A DNA stretch of 64,000 nucleotides from Alphaproteobacteria bacterium (GCA_965249135.1 OZ252220.1:1990056-2054055); one strand, 5' to 3'; shown: positions 3,371-51,525, counted from the stretch's first letter. Numbers and translations: made by a program. The notes: generated from the letters alone by a model not told the origin.

Positions 3371-4305
3371 ATGAGTGCAGATTCCCTAAAAACCCTTAAA
3401 TCCGTTTTGCTATCCGGCACCATGCTTCCTTTGGTGGCGGGGGCAGGCGTTATTGCGATTGGCGTGACGCTTGGTGACACCCCTGTGCAAGCCGAGCAGC
3501 TCGCGGGCTATTACAAAAATCAGGGAACGAAGAATCCCTGTGCCGCGAAGAATCCCGATATGGCAAGGCGGGGCTGCAACCCTTGTAACCCTTGCGCGGC
3601 GAAGGGCTGTACCCCTGTGGCCCGTGCGGTCCATGCGGTGCCGCTGCAGGCCCAGAGCTTTCGGATAAGGAAGCAGACGCGCTTTATAAGAAGCTCAAGG
3701 GCAAGATGGCGAAGGCCTACAAGCAATCCGGTCTTCCCTTCGCCGCCTATTACCAGACCTGGAAACGCTTCAATACCGTCCCATACGTTTCCGCCACCCA
3801 TGGCGGTCGTTATGTGAACAACTATGGGAACGCGAAGGCAGGCGCATACAGAAAATTCGAAGAAGCTGGGAAGATGCCCAAAAGCGCCATCCTTGTGAAA
3901 GACAGCTTCACGAGCGTGGCTGCGAAAGGATGCAACCCCTATAATCCCTGTGCGGCGAAGAACCCTTGTGCGGCGAAAGGATGCAATCCCTGCAACCCCT
4001 GCGCGGCGGAGAACCCTTGTGCGGCCAAGGGCTGCAACCCTTGCAGCCCGTGCGGTCCCTGCAACCCATGTGGGGCTACATCGAAATCTCCCATTGGTCC
4101 CCTCTTCGTCATGGAAAAGATGGGAGAAGGATTCTACCCCGCGAGCGGCGATTGGCGTTACACGATGGTCTTGCCAAACGGGCAGGTCTTTGGGACGACG
4201 AAGGGAAAGGGCTCCGACAAGGTTGAGTTCTGCATAACCTGTCACGTAGCTGCGGAAGATTACGATCACTTGATGTTCTTGCCGGACGAATATCGGAAAA
4301 AGTAA
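3371..4305 (+). CDS. cytochrome P460-family protein with signal peptide and two inserted Cys-rich NPC/AAK repeat modules; 1-nt frameshift near 3607-3617 (ORF pieces 3299..3817 and 3592..4305)
   Basis: AGGAG RBS before the ATG at 3371, followed by a signal peptide. C-terminal CITCH heme motif followed by [10 protein letters not shown], resembling the N. europaea P460 C-terminus (CAACH...DMVFTQFYP). About 20 extra Cys in [11 protein letters not shown] repeats. The frames join if one base is restored in tgtacccctgt. Confidence 0.7.
3919..4075 (+). repeat. coding tandem repeat (18-nt NPCAAK-type units) inside the P460 gene; a shorter block lies at 3535-3655
   Basis: Read directly: repeated aacccttg(t/c)gcggcgaag-like units. 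Confidence 0.8.
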
Positions 4306-4411: not shown

Positions 4412-5440
4412 ATGCGCGAGGATTGGACAAGGCCCCTTTTATTGGCAGCTGGCATATTTATCTTTTGTGTAACCGCCTACCATCTTTTTTCAGGGAACGA
4501 CGTCCTGGCCAGCGATTTGCGCAAATCCAGCGATTTGCGCAAATGGAGGTCAGAATGGCCCCATACGGACTTTGCAAAAACATCGATCGACTTCAATGAG
4601 ATTTCTTCCGGGGGACCCAAGAAAGACGGTATTCCTGCAATTGATTATCCGAGATTTAAGCCGATCGATGAGATTTCGACGGTCGGCAATGATGAACTCG
4701 TTGTGACGGTTATTATTGGTGATGAGGCACGTGCCTATCCAGTGCAAGTCCTGATGTGGCACGAGATCGTCAATGACAAGATCGGGGAGGTGCCCCTTTC
4801 CGTCACGTTCTGCCCGCTTTGCAACTCGGCAGTCGTTTTCGACCGGCGGCTGAAAGGGAAAGTCCTGGATTTTGGGACCACCGGTAAACTTCGCAACTCA
4901 GACCTCGTCATGTACGACCGTCAAACGGAAAGCTGGTGGCAACAGTTCACGGGTGAGGCGATTGCCGGATCCCTTACCGGCGAAAAATTGACGTTCCTCC
5001 CGGCGCGGGTCGAATCCTTCGCGAAGTTTCGGAAGCGGGCTCCAAAGGGAAAAGTGCTGGTCCCGAATTATACGAGCATGCGTGCCTACGGCTACAATCC
5101 CTATGCCGGCTATGACCGCAATCCCTATCCTTTCCGCTATCGGGGCGAAATGCCGTCAAACATCGCCCCGTTGGAAAGAGTCGTCTCGGTGGGGAAAGAG
5201 GCCTGGAGCCTCAAATTTCTCCGCAAACGTCGAAAGATCGTCGCCGATGGTCTTATTCTCACATGGGAATCCGGCCAGAACTCGGCGCTTGATACAGAGC
5301 GTATCAGCGAGGGGCGCGATATAGGGAATGTCATCGTCCAACGGAAAACGGCGGATGGCCCGGAAGATGCCGTTCACGACATAAGTTTTGCCTTTGCGTT
5401 TCATGCCTTTCATCCCGACGGCGTGATTCACGTGGATTAG
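4412..5440 (+). CDS. DUF3179-family protein with N-terminal TM anchor
   Basis: Characteristic DUF3179 segments (VTFCPLCNSAVVFDR, TGKLRNSDLVMYDRQTESWWQQFTGEAI). Confidence 0.75.
   Translation: MREDWTRPLLLAAGIFIFCVTAYHLFSGNDVLASDLRKSSDLRKWRSEWPHTDFAKTSIDFNEISSGGPKKDGIPAIDYPRFKPIDEISTVGNDELVVTVIIGDEARAYPVQVLMWHEIVNDKIGEVPLSVTFCPLCNSAVVFDRRLKGKVLDFGTTGKLRNSDLVMYDRQTESWWQQFTGEAIAGSLTGEKLTFLPARVESFAKFRKRAPKGKVLVPNYTSMRAYGYNPYAGYDRNPYPFRYRGEMPSNIAPLERVVSVGKEAWSLKFLRKRRKIVADGLILTWESGQNSALDTERISEGRDIGNVIVQRKTADGPEDAVHDISFAFAFHAFHPDGVIHVD
4510..4545. repeat. in-frame 18-bp perfect tandem duplication (SDLRKS x2) in the DUF3179 gene
   Basis: cagcgatttgcgcaaatc repeated twice (4510-4527, 4528-4545). Confidence 0.9.
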
Positions 5441-38227: not shown

Positions 38228-39520
38228 TCAGCGCAGTTTTCGAAGGCGGGCCGCGTAGAAGCCGTCCATGCCGCCGAGCGTATCGAGATGCGAGGGTAGC
38301 GTGCGAAGATCGCCTACCGGGGTGAGCAATTCACCGATCCCGCCGACCTCATCCGGCTCGATCGGCAAACGCACCAGTGGCGCGCCTTTTGCCAGCAGCG
38401 CTTCGATCCGTTTTTCCGCCTCCTCCGGCTGCAGCGAGCACACCGCATAAACGAGGATTCCATCGTCTGCCATCATCGCAACGGCGGACTGAAGCAACGC
38501 ATCCTGTATGACCGCCAGCTTCTTGATGTCGTCCGGCGTCTTCTGCCAGGCAATGTCCGGATGGCGCCGTATCGTGCCAGTCGCACTGCAGGGGGCATCC
38601 AGAAGGACGAAGGAGGCGGGTTGCTCCGGTTTCCAATCGGTGGCATCCGCCTCGATGGTTTGTGCGTCCAGATGAAGGCGGGCAAGATTCTCGTGAAGAA
38701 GCCCCAAACGCGAAGGCGAGCGATCGATGGCGATTACACGCGCCCCATGATCGGCAAGTTGGGCTGCCTTTCCCCCAGGGGCGGCGCAAAGGTCCAGAAC
38801 GAAGGCATCCTCCACATTGCCGAAAAGCTTCGCCGGAATGGCGGCGGCTGCATCCTGCACCCACCAGATACCTTCCCCATAGCCGGGAAGCGCATCGATG
38901 GACCCATGTGTGTGCAATCGAAAGCTTCCTGTAGGAAGCAGCGTTGCATCGAGTTTTGCGGCGAAATTTTCCATGCCCTGTCGAAAGGTAAAATCCAAAG
39001 GTGCTTTCCGAAGATGGGCGAGGGCAATCTCTCGGCAAATTTCCCCTCCATAGGCATGCTGCCACGATTCCCAAAGCCAGGCCGGTGTATTGAGGTGCGC
39101 CGCATCGTACGATCGAAGCAGTTTCGTTCCCTCTTGCGACAGACGGCGAAGAACCGCATTCACAAGCCCCTTGTAGAAGGCGAACGGAGTGGCGTGAAGA
39201 AGCTCGACGCTGCTGTCGACAGCGGCATGCGGAGGGGTTTTGAGGAAGCAAAGCTGTGCGATTCCTATACGCAACACATCCCGCACGATGGCGGCTTTTC
39301 GTGGGAGCGGCTTTTCGAGGACGTGATCGATGAGGGCGTCGATCTCGCCAAGATGGCGAAGGGTGGTGGCGACGAGATTGTAAACGAAGGCGCGATCGCG
39401 CGGATCGAAACTGGCGATTCCGGGGTCCTCCGCGAAGGCTTCCTCGAAAGGCGCCTTCCGGCCAAGCACGGCGGCAAGAAGGTCGAGAATGGAACGACGC
39501 GGGTTTCGAAAACGGTTCAT
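38228..39520 (-). CDS. rsmB: 16S rRNA (cytosine-C5)-methyltransferase RsmB/Sun family
   Basis: NusB-like N-terminus plus SAM MTase domain (DLCAAPGGK, PCSATG). Confidence 0.85.
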   Translation of the reverse strand: MNRFRNPRRSILDLLAAVLGRKAPFEEAFAEDPGIASFDPRDRAFVYNLVATTLRHLGEIDALIDHVLEKPLPRKAAIVRDVLRIGIAQLCFLKTPPHAAVDSSVELLHATPFAFYKGLVNAVLRRLSQEGTKLLRSYDAAHLNTPAWLWESWQHAYGGEICREIALAHLRKAPLDFTFRQGMENFAAKLDATLLPTGSFRLHTHGSIDALPGYGEGIWWVQDAAAAIPAKLFGNVEDAFVLDLCAAPGGKAAQLADHGARVIAIDRSPSRLGLLHENLARLHLDAQTIEADATDWKPEQPASFVLLDAPCSATGTIRRHPDIAWQKTPDDIKKLAVIQDALLQSAVAMMADDGILVYAVCSLQPEEAEKRIEALLAKGAPLVRLPIEPDEVGGIGELLTPVGDLRTLPSHLDTLGGMDGFYAARLRKLR

Positions 39521-39574
39521 GAGCCAAACCGACGATGCTAAGCTTCGGGTCCTAATCTCTCTCAGAGGTTTTCG

Positions 39575-39775
39575 ATGGCTGCAAGCTCCGATAAGCCAAC
39601 ACCATCCGCCGTACCTTCCGCGAGAAGGGTGGAAGGGAAGAAGAAGCGAAAACGAAAAAAAGGCAGCCCGCCGGGTCCGACGAAGGCGGCTCCTGCCGAA
39701 ATCGGCGGGCCGAAAGGGCCGGAGCCGACCCGCTATGGCGATTGGGAGCGAAAGGGCCGTTGCTCGGATTTCTAG
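39575..39775 (+). CDS. DUF1674-domain protein (SDH assembly factor 4-like)
   Basis: C-terminal EIGGPKGPEPTRYGDWERKGRCSDF signature. Confidence 0.75.
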   Translation: MAASSDKPTPSAVPSARRVEGKKKRKRKKGSPPGPTKAAPAEIGGPKGPEPTRYGDWERKGRCSDF

Positions 39776-40062
39776 GCGCCGGAAAATTAGGCCTTAATTC
39801 CCAATTATATACTTTAAAAATACACCATATCTTGTTAAAAAATGGATATCTAGTAAAGGCACGGCGTCAGCATCCTCTCTCTGGTAGAGAGAACTTGCCA
39901 AAGACGGCCGTTTCTGGAATCGATGCAAGGTTGAATGCTAGGAAAAAGGCCGGGGCTTGTAATCCCGGCCTCTATAGGCGTCCCCGCTGCAATTTATCGG
40001 AACCGCCGCGGGGCATTGGATTTCTGTAGTAGGGCTTATCTAGCCTCAAGCGCTTCCTTCGT

Positions 40063-40138
40063 CAAGGCGGTTCTCTTACGAGAAGGAGAACCGCTATGAA
40101 CAAGGCGGTTCTCTTACGAGAAGGAGAACCGCTATGAA
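40063..40138 (+). repeat. perfect 38-bp tandem duplication (caaggcggttctcttacgagaaggagaaccgctatgaa x2); each copy carries an SD-containing hairpin and an ATG
   Basis: Read directly: 40063-40100 equals 40101-40138. Hairpin cggttctc / gagaaccg encloses or abuts AAGGAGA. Confidence 0.9.
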
Positions 40139-40367
40139 AAAGCGGAAAATCGTTGATGCAAGGGCGGACAAAGAGGGTGACATCACCCATGTCCGTTTCG
40201 AAGATAACTCTCGATTTACCTCTGTCGAGCAGGCCATTCCGATGGCCGATCGCGGGGAAATCAAAGACACCCATGTTGTCAGACGCCAAAATGCGAAGAC
40301 GCACTTGCGGACGGACCGCGATGGCAGGAAAAGCAACAACCTCGATTACATGGCTGGCGGCGGCTAA
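40134..40367 (+). CDS. DUF3892-family small protein
   Basis: 77 aa; DITHVRF...SVEQAI...TH(L)RT.RDG...NNLD pattern recalled as DUF3892; SD in the duplicated leader. Confidence 0.55.
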   Translation: MKKRKIVDARADKEGDITHVRFEDNSRFTSVEQAIPMADRGEIKDTHVVRRQNAKTHLRTDRDGRKSNNLDYMAGGG

Positions 40368-40527
40368 AGCCAGTAGGTGAAGCGCGGCTTCATAACGCGT
40401 TCATTCCTGTAATCGTCGAGATTCCGATACAGGTTGGCCGTTATGGAGCCGTCTTCATCGTCCCGGTTCATCGTCCCGGAATATTTCGCTCGCGATATAA
40501 ATTTTATCGTCCAAGACGACGAGATAA

Positions 40528-40698
40528 TCATAGTTTCTCAGCATCATCGCGGTGCTTCGTTTGCGGTTTGGCTTTTGGTTTACGTGGACGCGGGGGCGTG
40601 TTCAACATGCGACGAATGACTGCTTTTTCAATAGGACGCTGGCGGATGCTCTTATCGGTCACGACTTTGTTTTTATTACCTTTTTTTGTATCAGTCAT
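40528..40698 (-). CDS. small basic hypothetical protein (56 aa, K/R/P-rich)
   Basis: Unlisted ORF MTDTKKGNKNKVVTDKSIRQRPIEKAVIRRMLNTPPRPRKPKAKPQTKHRDDAEKL with an AAGG-type RBS. No recognisable family. Confidence 0.25.
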   Translation of the reverse strand: MTDTKKGNKNKVVTDKSIRQRPIEKAVIRRMLNTPPRPRKPKAKPQTKHRDDAEKL

Positions 40699-40748
40699 CG
40701 TAGCTACCTTGGGCTGGTAAAAAATAAACGGCTGCTTTTAAAGAGGGG

Positions 40749-41210
40749 GTGAACAATACCGTGCAGCAAACCATTTCGCGGGATAAATGGGAGGTCGCTT
40801 TTCTCGAATCGGCAAAAGACACCCTGTTATGGGCGGCTGATTATTGTGCTTGGGCCATACAAAGGAAGTGGGAGACTGGCGATACTCGCTCCTTTGATTT
40901 GATTGCCGATAAGGTGGCAGTGGAGGCAGGGTACACGCCATTACTATTAAAGAAAGCGAGACCCGCAATCTTAGCTATCCTTTCGGAGGTGCCCAGGGGC
41001 ACTTTCGCTAAGCAAGGGTCCCGCTTCTGGAACCTACAGAATCACGGCTGGCAAGGAAGGTCAAATCACAATCAACCGCGCCTCAACCAAACCAACCATC
41101 TAGCTTTTTCAAGCACTTGTCGGACGTTTAGCCTGGCAAGCCGAAGCTTCGGCAATTCACCACCCTTGAGACCTCCCATAGGTAAGCCGTTTGCCTTCGA
41201 TGCCTCTTAA
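40749..41210 (+). CDS. hypothetical protein (GTG start after AAGAGGGGG RBS); C-terminal ~20 codons overlap the transposase 3' end
   Basis: ORF with a strong RBS; no recognisable family. Confidence 0.35.
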   Translation: MNNTVQQTISRDKWEVAFLESAKDTLLWAADYCAWAIQRKWETGDTRSFDLIADKVAVEAGYTPLLLKKARPAILAILSEVPRGTFAKQGSRFWNLQNHGWQGRSNHNQPRLNQTNHLAFSSTCRTFSLASRSFGNSPPLRPPIGKPFAFDAS

Positions 41211-42081
41211 GGCCATATCCGCACGGGTGGCATCCTCAATCTTGCGGGTGTTGTAGCGGAAATCGAACTCCGCCAGGTACCGATGAAGGTGTTTCTCTTG
41301 GCAGTGCTGGTAAACGCCCCTCATGCCCCGTTTAAATACGCTGAAATAGGTTTCCACGGCATTCGTGGACTCACCCGAAGGGCCGACATACTGACCCCTA
41401 GCGTGAACGACCGTCCTGTGGGCTGCGAACTCCTTGCCAAGTTTCGTATAGATGCGGCTTTCGTCCGTATGCAATTCCGACTTGCGGGAGATGTGACGGA
41501 CGAGAATTTCACGCACCGTCCGGGCATTGGCCGTTTTAACATTGAAGGAGCGAACACTACCGCCGGGCTCTACTAGGGTCACGACCGAGCGCTTTTTGGA
41601 CAGGCCCTTTTTCTCCGGCCATTTCTTGCCGCGCACTACATCCTTGGAGCCGAAGTAGGTTTCGTCCACCTGGATGGCCTTGCCGGGGCCGCCCATAGGC
41701 GAGGAATTGTCCCCTCGCATGGGCCTCGCGGATGCGGTGGGCCATGAACCACGCCGTCTTGTAGGTAATGCCAAGCATCCTGTGTAGTTGGTGGGCGCTC
41801 ATGCCCTTCTTGGAGGCGCAAATAAGGTGGTTCGCCGCCAACCATTTATGCAGGGGGACGTGGGAGCGCTCGAAAAGGGTGCCTACCGTCACGGAGAACT
41901 GCTTTCTGCAAGCGCCGCAATGCCATAGGCCGGGGCGGGCTGCCTTGCCGCGAATTCGCGTCGAGCGGCCTTTCTTGCCACAATGAGGGCAAGTAGGAAT
42001 TTTGTCCGGCCAGCGGGCCGATTCCAGCCATTTCCGGGCTGTTTTCTCGTCGTGAAACCGCTTTTCACCAAGGCTTACCAT
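41157..42081 (-). pseudogene. IS1595-family transposase, frameshifted (ORF pieces 41557..42081 and 41157..41774; shift at C4/G4 run 41711-41714)
   Basis: N-terminal zinc-ribbon (CPHCG...CGACRK) and ...YKTAWFMAHRIREAHARG in one frame; ...KAIQVDETYFG... DDE domain in the other. Confidence 0.75.
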
Positions 42082-42323
42082 CTTCTTAGCTCCTTCATAT
42101 CCTTACATAAAGGAGCATATCGGAATCAGAGTGTATGTGTCAAGTATATAATTAGGCCTTAATTCCTTAATTAAGATTATTAACCTAAAAATTCTTGCTT
42201 TGTTCCAGGATCCGTTCCACACTTTCGACGGATTTCAGCCGGGCGAGGGCAATTTTCATACGCCCGTATTCAGGCAGGCCGGGCCTGCCGTGGAATAATC
42301 CGGCACATGCAATGGTAAGAAGG

Positions 42324-51475: not shown

Positions 51476-51497
51476 CGTGGCGATTTTCTGCCGCTAC

Positions 51498-51525
51498 CTT
51501 CGCCGCCTTCGCCGCCTTCGCCGCG
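51498..51525. repeat. 9-bp tandem repeat (cttcgccgc x3) abutting the 5' end of tRNA-Thr
   Basis: Read directly. Confidence 0.8.

Follow-up and report, generated by a model that had tools for sequence, protein, structure and literature searches.

A 38-bp tandem duplication of the start region of a DUF3892 passenger gene in an IS1595-family element, its probable origin and its genomic setting

The start region of a DUF3892 gene, carried as a passenger by an IS1595-family element, contains two head-to-tail copies of a 38-bp unit. They probably arose through a recent tandem duplication, specific to this lineage, of the entire initiation cassette; the change would have been tolerated as self-restoring, the signals for initiation surviving across the two copies. 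The upstream open-reading frame (uORF), its ATGA overlap with the main gene and the "twin hairpins" would therefore be by-products of the mutation, not an evolved regulatory device. We infer that the duplication arose by slippage and was nearly neutral. Replication slippage or unequal exchange would have duplicated a cassette comprising anti-Shine-Dalgarno (anti-SD) arm, SD arm and start codon, and the event would have taken place on the DUF3892 passenger gene within a recently inserted, partly broken element. Copy 1 would have retained a conserved upstream box and the ancestral geometry, and copy 2 the intact SD, ATG and ORF; because a unit of 3n+2 length was duplicated in a gene that natively begins ATGA, it follows by arithmetic that the ORF from the first ATG stops on the second. 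The two copies would then refold into one nested hairpin, in which both SDs are paired and the real start costs the same to open, and the conserved control element would be the single-copy, SD-burying hairpin directly downstream of the GTCAA[GC] box. The features are listed in Table 1; "the window" is the whole 64-kb stretch of DNA that was analysed.

Table 1. Coordinates of the features in the window
Feature	Position	Strand	Remarks
Further tandem repeats (four)	2193-2222, 4509-4544, 51497-51524, 3919-4071		last is a diverged 51-nt array
Terminal inverted repeats	39784-39825 and 42131-42172		imperfect; share AATTATATACTTGAC with relatives
Flanking direct repeat of target	39785-39801 and 42150-42166		AATTAGGCCTTAATTCC; 13-17 bp duplicated target
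IS1595-family passenger-carrying element	39802-42150		2.35 kb; imperfect terminal inverted repeats
Candidate sRNA	39943-40031	-	~90 nt; two hairpins and terminator-like tail
Invariant box, -35-like	40061-40066	-	GTCAAG on plus strand, CTTGAC on minus strand (40066 to 40061)
Copy 1 of 38-bp unit	40063-40100	+	last 4 nt of GTCAAG box, anti-SD arm, loop, SD arm, ATGAA
Copy 1 hairpin	40066-40095	+	12-bp stem, 40066-40077 with 40084-40095; 6-nt loop 40078-40083; SD1 AAGGAGA 40083-40089
Nested composite hairpin, two-copy RNA	40066-40133	+	predicted minimum-energy fold
uORF	40096-40137	+	13 codons, MNKAVLLREGEPL and stop; created by the duplication
Copy 2 of 38-bp unit	40101-40138	+	same sequence as copy 1; SD and ATG of DUF3892 ORF
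Copy 2 hairpin	40104-40133	+	same hairpin; SD2 40121-40127
DUF3892 gene	40134-40367	+	77 aa, intact; Pfam PF13031, e-value 2.6e-12
Small convergent gene	40364-40698	-	conserved, 65-111 aa in relatives; broken here into several frames
Second perfect tandem duplication	40454-40479	-	13 bp x 2, TTCATCGTCCCGG x 2
IS1595-family transposase	41157-42081	-	PF12760 e-value 1.7e-12 (Zn-ribbon), PF12762 e-value 2.7e-33 (DDE_Tnp_IS1595)

The duplicated unit and its predicted folding

The two copies are identical, with 0 mismatches. TRF returned a period of 38, 2.1 copies and a score of 153 over 40063-40142, and an exact pattern search for the 38-mer CAAGGCGGTTCTCTTACGAGAAGGAGAACCGCTATGAA found exactly two occurrences, in tandem, with no third copy elsewhere in the 64-kb window and with two matches in 0 of 100 shuffles, so that the perfect duplication at 40063-40138 described in the original prediction was correctly placed. 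Since 29 nt separate the box from the first start codon (ATG1), copy 1 stands in the ancestral place and copy 2, in which the box remnant reads AACAAG, is the extra one. The junction of the copies (40088-40101) makes a GAAC-N6-GAAC motif, 1 base short of the LexA-type direct-repeat spacing, which is probably meaningless. Elsewhere the window holds further perfect tandem repeats (14 bp x 2.1, 18 bp x 2 and 9 bp x 3.1) and a diverged array of 51-nt repeats with copies 63-86% identical, and tandem duplication seems to be a recurrent type of mutation in this genome.

Translation of 40096-40137 bore out the claim that the ATG of the first copy opens a uORF whose stop overlaps the DUF3892 start: its TGA (40135-40137) shares two bases with the ATG (40134-40136) of the main gene, forming ATGA at 40134-40137. 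The uORF has its own SD, and its peptide is simply an out-of-frame reading of the hairpin. It begins after the second of the four complementary segments formed by the two copies and spans the third and fourth, covering the entire second hairpin; any ribosome translating it would thus expose SD2 and necessarily unwind copy 2, and to this extent the earlier interpretation is supported. Among 18 relatives a leader ORF ending at the start is erratic or absent, and none is conserved. A second upstream ORF (39935-40099), which ends on the first ATGA, was considered and rejected, no comparable ORF being conserved and no Pfam match being found for it.

Folding against shuffles gave the single hairpin -19.5 kcal/mol (z -4.7), and it ranks in the top 0.34% of the region's 39-nt windows. 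Of the seven SD bases the stem pairs six, with P(unpaired) of ~0.02-0.03, and AUG1 abuts the foot of the stem. The SD-sequestering hairpin is thus present and buries the SD as claimed, with a stem of 12 bp where 8 bp had been given. Because the unit is itself an inverted repeat, two copies provide four mutually complementary arms, and these are predicted to combine into a nested structure: an outer helix (40066-40077 with 40122-40133) pairs the 5' arm of copy 1 with the 3' arm of copy 2, an inner helix (40084-40095 with 40104-40115) pairs the 3' arm of copy 1 with the 5' arm of copy 2, and the apical loop AUGAACAA (40096-40103) holds AUG1. In these calculations, all of which predict states at equilibrium (during transcription the local hairpins would be the first to form), diagnostic pair probabilities at 37 °C were 0.988 for the nested fold vs. 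0.012 for the local hairpins, so the twin hairpins originally proposed give way to a composite fold that dominates at ~99%. The total energy is ~-46 kcal/mol, vs. -24 kcal/mol for one copy, and both SDs stay paired in the nested and in the local folds. Thermo-sensing fares no better: in a folding series from 15 to 50 °C the SD pairing probability was flat, the unpaired SD fraction remaining at 0.15-0.17, nearly all of which is one loop base (1 of 7, or 0.14), and an Rfam search of 39500-40800 (E <= 10) gave no match to ROSE, fourU or any other family except chance miRNA-type hairpin hits.

Start accessibility was expressed as opening energy, the free energy needed to clear the ribosome footprint (-15 to +12). 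At equilibrium this was 18-19 kcal/mol for the reconstructed one-copy start, 17-18 kcal/mol for AUG2 and 24 kcal/mol for AUG1, vs. 11.3 +/- 3.9 kcal/mol for 26 other gene starts, and the DUF3892 start is among the least accessible in the window. The opening energy of AUG2 is not raised because the copy 1 hairpin re-forms once SD2 is pulled out. The duplication is thus predicted to leave the real start as inaccessible as before, the uORF start being the harder one, and this thermodynamic proxy argues against the proposal that translation of the main ORF depends on that of the uORF. The predicted outcome also depends on where the transcript starts: with a modelled 5' end at or beyond ~40076, SD2 is ~77% open and SD1 is captured by the 5' arm of copy 2, so the main start would still work, and in a modelled one-copy leader with its 5' end inside the 5' arm the SD opens to 95%.

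The mobile element and related DUF3892 loci

The element with the duplication sits between the DUF1674 and SNase genes as a strain-specific insertion: the three contigs L067-L069, whose flanks are 99.1-99.3% identical, lack it, and their empty site reads ..GAAAATTAGGCCTTAATTCCTTAATT.. (around 4210-4235). Assignment to the IS1595 family follows from transposase domains (found on two overlapping ORFs), inverted repeats with a target duplication seen against the empty site, and internal passenger genes. Inverted repeats with ..TATA.ACTTGAC.. enclose transposase, DUF3892 and the small convergent gene in seven relatives (L007, L019, L022, L039, L049, L051, L062). The transposase is split into ORFs of 174 and 205 aa, with a frame change near 41720, and in relatives is a single frame of ~308 aa. 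In most relatives it lies upstream of DUF3892 on the same strand, which implies that read-through transcripts exist, and the module occurs in both orientations. No closer copy of the element came from exact look-ups (DUF3892, both transposase ORFs, Rpe), and plasmid searches gave transposase-level matches of 68-75% only. The flanks of four independent assemblies agree with at most 1 gap in 8 kb, which makes an indel-type assembly error unlikely.

The small convergent gene overlaps the 3' end of DUF3892 by a few bases. Its protein carries the motif GDYFLV..GK.R.A...EDGSITADLYRNLDDYR.GRVME..F.YWL, with relatives at L003, L007, L008, L022, L039 and L047-L051, and matched no Pfam or PADLOC family; the gene is a conserved partner of the IS-borne DUF3892. 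In the window it is frameshifted by the second perfect tandem duplication, and removal of one copy brings back both its reading frame and the family sequence ..EIFRDDEDGSITANLYRNLDDY.. DUF3892 is the sole gene of the element still intact. The two perfect tandem duplications lie within 400 bp of each other in a broken mobile element (the second ~320 bp from the first), one of them plainly destructive, which we read as a signature of recent slippage. Between the small gene and the transposase there is also a 153-aa ORF (40749-41210, plus strand), which overlaps the 3' end of the transposase gene and has no family match and no homologue in related loci.

The window DUF3892 protein has 108 homologues, the best 84% identical, and its exact sequence occurs on a single contig. 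From 66 related loci collected, 62 were examined for repeats, and none of these (up to 84% protein identity) carries a tandem repeat of unit 8-60 within -150 to +40 of the start; as the closest carrier of the module has 84% protein identity, the one-copy ancestor of the window element is a reconstruction. In 19 loci, the window and 18 relatives, an invariant GTCAA[GC] box lies 27-44 nt (mostly 29-36) upstream of the ATG and is the sole conserved block of the upstream region. The hairpins that follow it differ in stem sequence (for example CTCCTAT/ATAGGAG, GGCATC/GATGCC, GGTTCC/GGAACC), the SD always lying in the 3' arm. Leaders were assessed by folding each sequence against shuffles and against a control group: mean leader MFE was -9.6 kcal/mol in the box loci vs. 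-4.7 kcal/mol in 35 other DUF3892 loci (p = 7e-5; z-scores p = 8e-4), and the SD was paired more often in the box loci (p = 0.003). RNAalifold on a MAFFT alignment of 16 leaders returned no consensus pairs; sequence alignment cannot register the leader helices because these vary in position and length. A structure-fitted, N-padded leader alignment was left out of the covariation counts, as helices picked by complementarity would make them circular. These comparisons run against a control element born of the duplication, the SD-burying hairpin being single-copy and built on other stems across the 19 loci, and the duplication with its uORF occurring in 0 of 62. The hairpin is therefore an ancestral regulator, and the duplication and uORF are private to the window's genome.

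Other readings of the box were tried and rejected. As a plus-strand promoter element it has no -35 or -10 at fixed spacing and no other conserved column, and an ECF-type -35 reading fits, by eye, L001 and L002 only. Inspection ruled against pairing between the box and the gene's V-D codons: several MFE folds do pair GUCA with UGAC/UGGC at the start codon, but this is indistinguishable from common second-codon usage. A leader variant in L065/L066, L013 and L020 replaces GTCAA[GC] by AATCAA[CT]CC and keeps the distance to the start (~29 nt). It adjoins an IS1595 transposase fragment in L065 and may be a diverged version of the box.

A candidate divergent sRNA and the DUF3892 protein

Read from the minus strand, the box is [CG]TTGAC and so matches the alphaproteobacterial -35 consensus; in the window a -10-like CTAGAT (40043 to 40038) follows it after a 17-nt spacer. 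Such -10-like hexamers are enriched 16-19 nt downstream of the box on this strand (p = 0.001), and the box is probably the -35 of a divergent sRNA gene. The candidate sRNA of the window folds at -37 kcal/mol (z -3.0): its hairpin 1 (40013 to 39982) carries GGCGGUUCC in the loop/stem, and a terminator-like hairpin, GGCCGGG..CCCGGCC followed by UUUUU, occupies 39970 to 39943. A hairpin of high stability (-15 to -29 kcal/mol) begins 64-117 nt from the box in all 19 loci, and in most of them a first hairpin comes before it, at 45-58 nt. Behind the second hairpin, minus-strand tails are rich in T (p = 0.006), and a strict terminator rule was passed at seven loci on the minus strand vs. 0 on the plus strand. 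Composition-corrected z was -3.5 on the minus strand vs. -2.0 on the plus strand (p = 5e-5), with 80 vs. 33 G-U pairs. In L001-L004, L007, L022, L027, L042, L047, L049, L051, L053, L059, L061 and L062 a candidate occupies the same position (window 39943-40066). Rfam gave no match for it in the window or in 13 relatives. MAFFT alignments of the region were not structure-consistent.

A word in the first hairpin of the candidate recurs, in the same polarity, where the anti-SD arm begins. It keeps to fixed positions in 13 of 19 loci, so the sRNA could pair with the SD arm. Cognate compared with non-cognate sRNA-leader duplexes gave weak evidence of locus-specific pairing (p = 0.14 with duplexfold, p = 0.012 for a contiguous helix). 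An alternative is that the region near the box is a plus-strand anti-anti-SD segment of a long leader and not an sRNA. Taken as a prediction, a divergent sRNA of ~90 nt beside DUF3892 seems to us somewhat more probable than its absence.

The start of the DUF3892 gene agrees with the N-termini of 26 homologues, and all 15 family-invariant residues are present. Its AlphaFold model (pLDDT 89) is a three-strand meander with a helix, a charged, hydrophilic alpha/beta domain, consistent with the description of DUF3892 as a dsRBD/HPF-like fold (PMC12419801). The PDB held no sequence match, Foldseek of the model found no significant PDB neighbour, and PADLOC gave a sub-threshold match to DpdH only. 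DUF3892 has been linked to DNA-damage-responsive regulators and defence (10.1101/2022.04.27.489752), and alphaproteobacterial LexA-type boxes at DUF3892 loci fit these links: an exact GAAC-N7-GAAC or GTTC-N7-GTTC lies within 100 nt of the start at 11 of 38 loci without the GTCAA[GC] box vs. 0.09 expected, which suggests SOS control of this family. The LexA-type boxes lie 30-75 nt upstream of the start (L005, L006, L009, L014, L021, L025, L028, L032, L040, L046, L052), and none occurs in the GTCAA[GC]-box subfamily. LexA control of the window gene itself was considered and rejected, its leader having no GAAC-N7-GAAC.

Known systems, rival explanations and meaning

The leader resembles several known systems in part. 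As in the SD-sequestering hairpins of RNA thermometers such as ROSE and fourU, the 5'-UTR forms a hairpin with the SD in its 3' arm and the start codon at its foot, and a CUCC-type anti-SD 5' arm, conserved through covariation across relatives, is present. The SD is indeed paired in the window; however, the stem is not marginally stable but a perfect helix with no predicted melting to 50 °C, the signatures of the thermometer families are lacking, and DUF3892 is not a heat-shock gene. In the fold-back inhibition of IS10/IS50, from the work of Kleckner and Reznikoff, read-through transcripts reportedly mask the RBS, and the element's own transcripts are without the 5' arm. Here too an IS-borne gene has its SD masked by an upstream complementary segment, with SD release predicted, in one- and two-copy states, if the 5' end falls inside the arm, but the gene is a passenger, not a transposase, and the adjacent conserved box reads as an opposite-strand promoter. 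Leader-peptide coupling and antisense control act together in plasmid replication (repA/tap/CopA of R1, repZ/repY/Inc RNA of ColIb-P9), and the window shares with these a short leader ORF stopping on the main start, a hairpin-buried main SD that leader translation could open, and a nearby candidate sRNA gene. Unlike theirs, the leader ORF is found in one genome only, as a by-product of the duplication, and its own start is the less accessible.

In ermC/cat-type translational attenuation four complementary segments exchange partners. The window's four segments (a, a', a, a') likewise allow 1:2 + 3:4 or 2:3 (+ 1:4), with SD2 in segment 4, but the uORF lies over segments 3-4 and not over the first, it has no evident stalling motif, no resistance gene follows and either fold keeps the SDs paired. 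IS1595-family elements with passenger genes are known from ISfinder groups such as ISNwi1+. The element shares with these a Zn-ribbon and DDE_Tnp_IS1595 transposase, terminal inverted repeats, a target duplication and internal non-transposase genes; it differs in that DUF3892, the small convergent gene and the structured upstream element recur together in many relatives, in both orientations, in that the target duplication of 13-17 bp exceeds the usual 8 bp of the family, and in that the transposase is frameshifted. Type I toxin-antitoxin loci include tisB/istR-1, which has a divergent sRNA. Common to both are a small gene, a structured translation-blocking leader and a divergent candidate sRNA, with LexA-type boxes at other members of the DUF3892 family. 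DUF3892 is, however, a hydrophilic 77-aa alpha/beta domain and not a small hydrophobic membrane peptide, the sRNA is predicted, and cognate sRNA-SD complementarity is weak.

Could the duplication nevertheless have created a translational control device, in which the uORF is translated first, the second hairpin melts and ribosomes reinitiate at the ATGA, sensing temperature or ribosome load? ATGA overlaps are the usual signature of translational coupling, the uORF has its own SD and ATG, a ribosome on it would open SD2, and the local hairpins would form first during transcription. We nonetheless regard this reading as improbable, as the uORF start is predicted to be the harder to open and the main start to open at no greater cost than with one copy, the SD is paired throughout 15-50 °C, neither the duplication nor a conserved leader ORF occurs in any relative, the peptide is no more than an out-of-frame reading of the hairpin, and a clearly destructive tandem duplication sits 320 bp away in the same element. 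That the sole intact gene has kept all its signals does count against a purely mutational account, for selection in favour of a new arrangement would leave the same picture. A silencing step in the decay of the element would have the nested 24-bp structure lock both SDs tighter and turn DUF3892 effectively off, which would suit the lower energy of the nested fold, the other inactivating lesions and a start already among the least accessible; set against this, the opening energy of AUG2 is not increased and the ORF is intact with its family-invariant residues, and we consider such silencing unlikely.

A reversible switch, in which gain and loss of the 38-bp unit by slippage toggles DUF3892 (phase variation), appears highly unlikely: the copies are identical and perfect tandem repeats containing an inverted repeat are slippage-prone, but, in contrast to contingency loci, the repeat has just two copies and its unit is long, the predicted effect on expression is small and copy number varies in no relative. 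We give even less credence to an assembly or sequencing artefact. The strong palindrome in the unit can disturb polymerases and the gene is on one contig only in public data, yet any read is longer than an exact direct repeat of 76 bp, neither long nor short reads typically err in this way, and the four flank assemblies agree. A recent, self-restoring duplication of the initiation cassette thus remains the explanation we favour.

The duplication alone is an ordinary mutation, and the conserved single-copy leader, the candidate sRNA and the IS-borne module matter more. It does provide a worked example in which a complete initiation cassette (anti-SD, SD and AUG) was doubled, probably almost neutrally, yet produced a new uORF and a new RNA fold, and such duplications are raw material for the evolution of leader-peptide control. 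The locked-start DUF3892, the box, the candidate sRNA and the small convergent gene travel repeatedly in IS1595-family elements. Tentatively, and with more doubt than conviction, we suggest that they may form an undescribed IS1595-borne cargo module, in which a divergent sRNA of ~90 nt, with the GTCAA[GC] box as its -35, accompanies a dsRBD/HPF-like, defence-linked DUF3892 with a covarying anti-SD lock and a small convergent gene. If so, the two-copy leader would be a natural variant of an sRNA-controlled, translation-locked passenger gene, which may stabilise or police the IS, and other DUF3892 genes would be under LexA-type boxes instead. The locus offers testable leads on the regulation of a defence-linked domain of unknown function and on why an insertion sequence carries DUF3892.
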